Virus record (IMG/VR): IMGVR_UViG_2778261298_000003
Direction: 5' to 3' (one strand)
Length of the DNA stretch: 35,391 nucleotides
Source: a virus
Lineage: Duplodnaviria; Heunggongvirae; Uroviricota; Caudoviricetes
The notes beneath the pieces are model-generated. The model had not been told where the DNA came from, did not search any database, and saw only the letters and a list, made by a program, of their open reading frames with translations. This document shows positions 31,880 to 31,969 of this stretch, one piece after another. Both the position numbers and the translations under genes were made by a program. The stretch's first letter is position 1; each line of letters starts with the position of its first letter.

Positions 31880-31969
31880 ATGAATAACCCCGTCTGTCTT
31901 GATGACTGGTTGATTGGCTTTAAAAGCTTATGCTGTACTTTGGCCGTAATAGCTCTGCTAATAATATAA
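31880..31969 (+). CDS. Candidate small hydrophobic peptide (29 aa, [29 protein letters not shown])
   Basis: ATG with GGAGAG SD 5 nt upstream; TAA stop at 31967-31969; not in the ORF track (below length cutoff). Confidence 0.25.

Follow-up and report, generated by a model that had tools for sequence, protein, structure and literature searches.

ynfS, a conserved 29-codon gene linked to cspF in the Qin prophage of Escherichia coli and in related phages

Just downstream of the cold-shock-like gene cspF, in a 35,391-nucleotide stretch of tailed phage DNA (Caudoviricetes; IMG/VR record IMGVR_UViG_2778261298_000003; the whole stretch is called the window below), lies an open reading frame of only 29 codons, and its size and position raise the questions of whether it is a gene at all and, if so, what its product might do. 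An initial reading of the letters alone (the sequence-only reading) had proposed that an ATG opens this frame 5 nt downstream of a GGAGAG Shine-Dalgarno sequence. The window sequence and its ORF listing bear this out: the coding sequence occupies 31880–31969 of the plus strand, with its ATG at 31880–31882 and, after 29 codons, a TAA stop at 31967–31969 that is abutted by a second in-frame TAA (31970–31972), and the GGAGAG lies at 31869–31874, separated from the ATG by TTTTT.

This frame has a name. Over 31600–32250 the window is 100% identical to many E. coli genomes, that of K-12 MG1655 included, and the K-12 RefSeq coding sequence WP_120795389.1 (a “hypothetical protein”), which lies between cspF and ydfT/quuQ in the Qin prophage, is the exact equivalent of 31880–31969. 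An exact-sequence look-up of the 29-residue peptide returned “Protein YnfS” (UniProt YNFS_ECOLI), and the Pfam family PF23697 “YnfS” matches it at 80.9 bits, against a cutoff of 27, across residues 1–29 of a 29-position model. VanOrsdel et al. (2018; PMC6001520) tabulate ynfS, with the identical sequence, between cspF and ydfT at K-12 coordinates 1642122–1642211. The residue sequence, the length and the flanking genes cspF and ydfT all agree with those of K-12 without a single difference, so the frame is the K-12 gene itself: a catalogued and experimentally confirmed small protein gene of the E. coli Qin prophage, and not a new one. A survey published in 2024 (PMC11551758) still counts ynfS among the uncharacterised Qin genes, and its ordered gene list has ynfS between ydfR and ydfU; the same gene order puts ynfT first among the Qin genes, which rules out ynfT as a name for this ORF. 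Searches with YnfS gave no match in NCBIfam, in the PADLOC anti-phage defence models or among PDB sequences, and the best PHROGs match was only at E = 0.12, to a family of unknown function; CspF itself has only a weak generic CSD_V match in PADLOC (E 9e-6). We put at roughly 85% the reading in which the ORF is a real protein-coding gene, ynfS, of Qin and its relatives that would be co-transcribed with cspF in the lysogen, specify a peptide that would insert into the membrane, and be damped by antisense transcription, as proposed below.

That ynfS is translated from its native locus has been established by others. A chromosomal SPA-tagged YnfS was detected by immunoblot, ynfS being one of 36 short ORFs whose fusions gave a band, and tetracycline ribosome profiling likewise scored the gene as positive (PMC6001520). 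Weaver et al. (bioRxiv 10.1101/511675) reported an immunoblot and, with retapamulin and Onc112, strong peaks at the ynfS start. Ribosome profiling and a reporter fusion were among the checks that the sequence-only reading had suggested, and both the published profiling and the SPA immunoblot are positive. As a bare sequence feature the ORF does not exceed chance: the window holds 7 ATG-initiated ORFs of 29–60 codons with a 5-mer Shine-Dalgarno match, and 8.2 ± 2.8 are expected from first-order Markov random sequences, so ORF and Shine-Dalgarno sequence alone would not establish a gene. It is the conservation across genera and the published translation data that raise ynfS above chance. The predicted RNA fold of 31826–31900 is no more stable than those of shuffled sequences (z +1.1), which suggests that the start site is accessible, and the GGAGAG is kept in 13 of 13 Citrobacter-type haplotypes despite divergence of the spacer around it.

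The evidence for a coding function that we can add comes from comparison between genera. Homologues were sought with degenerate DNA patterns and with CspF as a synteny anchor, taking one genome per species. In Citrobacter sp. FP75, C. braakii and C. pasteurii a cspF homologue (83–87% identical) precedes a 29-codon ORF whose product is 52–59% identical to YnfS (MNQTVYLSDWLTGLKSLCSTIAMTILLFI, MYQKIYLNDWLTGLKSSCCTLIVTLLVFI and MYPKIYLNDWLTGLKSSCCTLIATILLFI). These ORFs align with ynfS without a change in the GGAGAG, the ATG, the length or the stop position, and no indel falls within the ORF; indels do occur in the spacer from cspF, and the sequence 3′ of ynfS cannot be aligned with Citrobacter. 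The Citrobacter-type homologues score above the Pfam YnfS threshold (37.2 and 32.3 bits), and a second pattern scan added 27 viral contigs with the Citrobacter-type allele, every one of them with an ATG and 29 codons behind a GGAGAG. No allele in which codon 12 starts with C, G or T, and so specifies neither Ile nor Thr, was found in the viral contigs scanned. All 159 copies of ynfS collected in this way have 29 codons, and 20 of their 21 nucleotide haplotypes start with ATG. The sequence-only reading had named lack of frame conservation as grounds for discarding the ORF; the frame, its length, its start and its Shine-Dalgarno sequence are clearly conserved in Citrobacter.

The pattern of substitution indicates what is being conserved. 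Only the annotated frame, out of six, is open in all five sequences compared, and the variable alignment columns fall at codon positions 1, 2 and 3 in the numbers 15, 12 and 24, respectively (21 haplotypes, 159 copies). Pairwise Nei-Gojobori dN/dS ratios are 0.15–0.32, and the synonymous sites are saturated or close to it. Among the 21 haplotypes there are at least 62 codon changes, at least 28 of them synonymous, an excess with a binomial P of 4e-5 against a neutral expectation of 22% and of 0.008 against one of 30%. When the observed number of substitutions was put at random positions, the probability of an open frame with no more amino-acid changes than observed was 0.008, 0.003 and 0.0001 in the three Citrobacter comparisons. 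Ten residues are invariant (M1, L7, D9, W10, L11, G13, K15, C18, T20 and L26), of which L7, L11, G13, K15, T20 and L26 are each specified by two to four synonymous codons, and the same YnfS peptide is in some cases encoded by several distinct DNA sequences. These comparisons show that ynfS is under purifying selection across the phages and prophages of Escherichia and Citrobacter, and that the selection acts on the peptide and not merely on an open frame.

Within E. coli the gene is nearly invariant. The 124 copies from E. coli and the IMG/VR contigs form 8 nucleotide haplotypes that differ by 1 synonymous and about 8 amino-acid-changing differences, a sample too uniform to be informative on selection, and one drawn with a search pattern that itself forced a conserved core; one of these copies has ATA in place of the ATG start. 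Since the few changes within E. coli mostly alter amino acids, it is the cross-genus comparison that carries the evidence for selection. A set of alleles with about 91% identity, that of phage 2H10 among them, differs at only 2–4 of the 90 ORF positions, as against roughly 13% divergence and a 7-nt indel between E. coli alleles in the poorly conserved untranslated stretch of about 148 nt that follows (31970–32117, plus strand).

How, then, is ynfS expressed? The gene upstream, cspF (31613–31825, plus strand), encodes the 70-residue cold-shock-like protein CspF, as annotated in RefSeq and as matched by the Pfam CSD model PF00313 at 77.8 bits. The sequence-only reading had placed ynfS on the same strand 55 bp after cspF; the strand stands, and the distance is off by one, the spacer being 54 nt (31826–31879), within which the Shine-Dalgarno sequence lies. 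In Citrobacter-type copies the indels give a spacer of 62–65 nt. Terminator and promoter scans found neither a terminator-like nor a plus-strand promoter-like site between cspF and ynfS. Among the 159 copies of ynfS, 8 are too near the end of a contig to be judged, which leaves 151. Of these, 149 have an intact same-strand cspF homologue ending 54–65 nt upstream, and the remaining two follow cspF remnants, one frameshifted and one truncated at its 5′ end by recombination with an inverted cspB-like gene. Because nothing that resembles a terminator or a plus-strand promoter intervenes, the spacer stays at 54–65 nt, and the linkage holds in 151 of 151 cases, co-transcription of ynfS with cspF from the cspF promoter is the reading we favour, and it is the simplest one that these features suggest.

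At three independent loci cspF has been disabled, once by an internal stop, once by a 1-nt frameshift and once by a 5′ truncation, and the ynfS that follows is intact; these are L003 (1288–1644), L165 (about 400–880) and L152 (about 1750–2260, minus strand). In the case in which cspF is truncated, from C. meridianamericanus, three extra amino-acid changes are found in the last five residues of YnfS, and these may reflect relaxed constraint.

Downstream of ynfS the sequence-only reading had noticed a strong hairpin at 32112–32153. There is indeed one, and it has the makings of an intrinsic terminator on both strands (32118–32153): a G+C-rich core stem-loop at 32118–32141, about 148 nt past ynfS, is followed by the T-rich tail CTACTTTTTC. 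Relative to shuffled sequences the fold is unusually stable on the plus strand (−15.1 kcal/mol, z −4.9) and on the minus strand (−24.1 kcal/mol, z −5.5), and the hairpin is retained even in alleles that are deleted for ynfS. On the plus strand it is the probable 3′ end of a cspF-ynfS transcript. On the opposite strand lies ydfT/quuQ (32247–32999, minus strand), annotated in RefSeq as the prophage antitermination protein Q gene and convergent with ynfS. Just downstream of it, the promoter scan identified a sequence resembling the lambda late promoter pR′ (32172–32216, minus strand), directed toward the hairpin and antisense to ynfS, with the layout TTTGCA, 18 nt, TAAAAT, 6 nt, AACGATGGG. In an alignment with the lambda Q-pR′ region, TCAACGATGGG is identical to lambda and stands in the same register after the −10 element; its lambda counterpart is the σ70-dependent promoter-proximal pause element of pR′, at which Q engages RNA polymerase. 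The minus-strand hairpin, about 40–70 nt past pR′, is a candidate for the tR′ of the prophage late promoter, and transcription from pR′ to such a terminator would give a short, 6S-like RNA of about 40–70 nt.

The full interval from cspF to the terminator is present in 1406 of 5426 complete E. coli genomes (about a quarter), the ynfS cassette is carried by the isolated phages HannyBb, PhiR42_1, PhiR63_1 and 2H10, and ynfS turns up in over 140 viral contigs of IMG/VR. At the Citrobacter loci the ynfU-like, cspB-like, cspF-like and ynfS-like genes are all retained together, and ynfU, cspB, cspF and ynfS form a small conserved insert located between Q and the lysis genes of the phage. Two of the Citrobacter blocks can be delimited (L130, 414–1866, and L132, 391–1868; the ynfU-like gene specifies a zinc-ribbon protein): the first, from strain FP75, adjoins a different Q-like gene and a DUF968 gene, and the second adjoins unrelated genes. 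A ynfS-like ORF was absent 3′ of the chromosomal paralogue cspH at the loci examined, and was likewise absent behind the cspF-like loci of Salmonella, Klebsiella, Enterobacter, other Escherichia species and C. sedlakii.

Between Q/pR′ and the lysis cassette, lambdoid phages are well known to carry inserted accessory genes (“morons”), the stx genes of Stx phages being an example. The ynfS insert resembles these in its site, which lies past Q, pR′ and tR′ and before the holin gene, and in being carried as a cassette by several phages, but it differs from them in that cspF and ynfS are oriented against late transcription. This orientation suggests that the two genes would be expressed in the lysogen rather than induced with the late genes.

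Several further observations concern the variability and annotation of the locus. One deletion allele lacks ynfS altogether, together with the 3′ end of cspF and the 3′ untranslated region to about 32072, and retains the terminator and pR′-like region; it is carried by E. coli JNEC-KY208 (L005, 1299–1589), by phage Tritos (H76) and by E. ruysiae (L150), its cspF is annotated as a pseudogene, and it accounts for some of the roughly 310 E. coli records with only a partial match to the interval. In E. coli TKEC21-17 (L184, 581–1412, matches H1–H4) an IS1A element lies in the 3′ end of ynfS and leaves a coding sequence of 27 codons with an altered C-terminus. The record of phage 2H10 (L004, LR595862) has cspB and cspF annotated and ynfS not annotated; that of HannyBb (L006, PP925841) has a string of “hypothetical proteins” of 30–45 codons, mostly on the strand opposite to ynfS, and neither csp gene. 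Short contigs with E. coli-like cspH/cspF loci in a Mucilaginibacter MAG (L141) and a Veillonella parvula MAG (L151) are most likely binning contamination. Finally, the Rfam cspA thermoregulator model RF01766 matches 31081–31473 on the minus strand (158.8 bits), a span that takes in cspB together with its 5′ leader and lies in the divergent region that cspB and cspF share.

What kind of protein is YnfS? The sequence-only reading had called it a hydrophobic, Cys-containing peptide, and this description fits: its GRAVY is 1.47 and it has cysteines at positions 6, 18 and 19. Residues 16–29 are apolar without interruption, right up to the C-terminus. On the Hessa scale residues 18–29 sum to −3.3 kcal/mol and the 19-residue window 11–29 to −1.0, values within the range that we computed for the membrane peptides TisB, ShoB, DinQ and IbsC; 19–20-residue windows of the Citrobacter homologues give +1.5 to +2.0, those of 19 residues +1.5 to +1.7, which is unfavourable on this crude scale that ignores position effects. 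Because the strongly hydrophobic run is only 12–14 residues long and the Citrobacter windows are unfavourable, a full membrane span is not assured, and a one-sided helical pattern of conservation was absent from YnfS (moment 0.01). It does not look like a lipoprotein; a lipobox of the form L-[AST]-[GAS]-C is absent from YnfS (K-S-L-C and S-L-C-C do not fit), and its cysteines precede the hydrophobic segment rather than follow it. We consider the odds to be roughly even that YnfS is a small tail-anchored or membrane-embedded protein, as its composition would suggest.

E. coli has several characterised small inner-membrane proteins, such as AcrZ, MgrB, MgtS, CydX and KdpF, whose role is to modulate larger membrane proteins. 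YnfS is like them in being very short, with one hydrophobic segment of helix length and its own Shine-Dalgarno sequence. It differs from them in having no sequence similarity to them, in having a shorter hydrophobic run that reaches the very C-terminus, and in being encoded by a phage-borne gene rather than by the core genome.

These features can be assembled into a tentative scheme. In a lysogen, ynfS would be transcribed together with cspF from the cspF promoter, with the transcript ending at the hairpin at 32118–32141, and the accessible GGAGAG-ATG site would allow translation of ynfS to initiate independently. A chain of 29 residues is finished while still inside the ribosome tunnel, so that any membrane insertion of YnfS would have to be post-translational. 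By way of its C-terminal half, which is hydrophobic (residues about 16–29, possibly 10–29), the peptide would enter the inner membrane. This would place the conserved motif L-x-D-W-L-x-G-x-K-S-x-C at the membrane interface, and YnfS might bind a larger membrane protein or associate with itself, as do most characterised small bacterial membrane proteins. Upon induction, RNA polymerase modified by Q would proceed from pR′ through the hairpin and across ynfS and cspF in the antisense direction, toward cspB and the lysis genes, and this late read-through would be expected to damp expression of ynfS and cspF in lytic growth.

Other explanations of the locus must be weighed against this reading. One might suppose that ynfS is a young, functionless ORF of a decaying prophage that happens to be translated, since its ORF and Shine-Dalgarno sequence are no rarer than chance in the window, its E. 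coli copies have almost no synonymous variation and one of them has lost its start codon, it is missing from three quarters of E. coli genomes, and it has no known function. We find this scarcely credible, given that the ORF is conserved with its coding signature in another genus and in intact phage isolates, and is present as well in over 140 viral contigs of IMG/VR; nor would it help to suppose that the Citrobacter homologues were acquired by recent transfer with little divergence, which is not what the data show, as their synonymous sites are saturated. It is also very improbable that only the act of translation matters, for instance by shielding the 3′ region of the cspF mRNA from Rho or RNases, and that the peptide itself is functionless. 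The tight and invariable coupling of the ORF to cspF, and its position in what would otherwise be a long 3′ untranslated region of about 290 nt, are what such a role would lead one to expect, but the amino acids are constrained (the dN/dS values above, and the ten invariant residues, six of them with two to four synonymous codons), and ynfS is intact in the three independent copies in which cspF is a pseudogene or truncated.

A role different from that of a membrane protein modulator might also be considered. YnfS resembles the type I toxins (TisB, ShoB, DinQ, Ibs and the Hok family) in size (theirs is 19–50 residues), in hydrophobicity and in prophage occurrence, and the same prophage carries hokD and relBE; it might be a prophage membrane peptide that is damaging when over-produced and is held in check by an antisense RNA. 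Such an RNA could come from a promoter at the 3′ end of the ORF, where there is a weak antisense promoter-like site (31990→31963), or from late-promoter read-through, since transcripts passing beyond tR′ from pR′ would be antisense to ynfS. However, the promoter-like site scores only 9 of 12, and such sites occur there at about the chance rate (5 found, against 2.8 ± 1.7); its −35 element lies where alignment with Citrobacter fails, and its −10 element overlaps codons that differ there. No Rfam family other than that of the cspB leader was found in 30500–33500, and we found neither a conserved antisense RNA nor a silencing structure at ynfS. Type I toxins are normally silenced at translation, whereas the ynfS Shine-Dalgarno sequence is strong and unstructured, and YnfS is made in normal growth: it is detectable from its own chromosomal locus in ordinary LB cultures, with strong initiation peaks (PMC6001520; 10.1101/511675), and such a native steady-state level argues against strong toxicity. 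Naturally occurring alleles in which IS1 or a deletion has knocked out ynfS are common, and they do not discriminate a type I toxin from the other readings. On balance we regard a type I toxin as distinctly unlikely. A more specific proposal, which we would call unlikely although somewhat less so, is that YnfS is the payload of a conserved, lysogen-expressed phage cassette, a tail-anchored membrane peptide that would alter the physiology of the host envelope or block superinfecting phages and would be switched off, after prophage induction, by antisense late transcription from pR′. As such a payload it could act with CspF or independently of it; the finding of an intact ynfS behind three independently inactivated cspF genes would fit a cassette of which ynfS is the part retained, and three cases are too few to establish this.

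The reading of ynfS as a conserved protein-coding gene of Qin and its relatives carries no weight as a discovery, as the gene had already been named, validated and given a Pfam family; the sequence-only reading did nonetheless pick out a real 29-codon gene from the letters of the window. YnfS is one of many E. coli small proteins that have been validated and are without a function. What our analysis adds is the evidence of purifying selection across genera, the invariable linkage of ynfS to cspF in a phage cassette, and the recognition of the downstream hairpin as a putative bidirectional terminator shared with a lambda-like late promoter. The cross-genus cassette, the cspF linkage, the ten invariant residues and the convergence with the phage late promoter provide handles for the study of YnfS.
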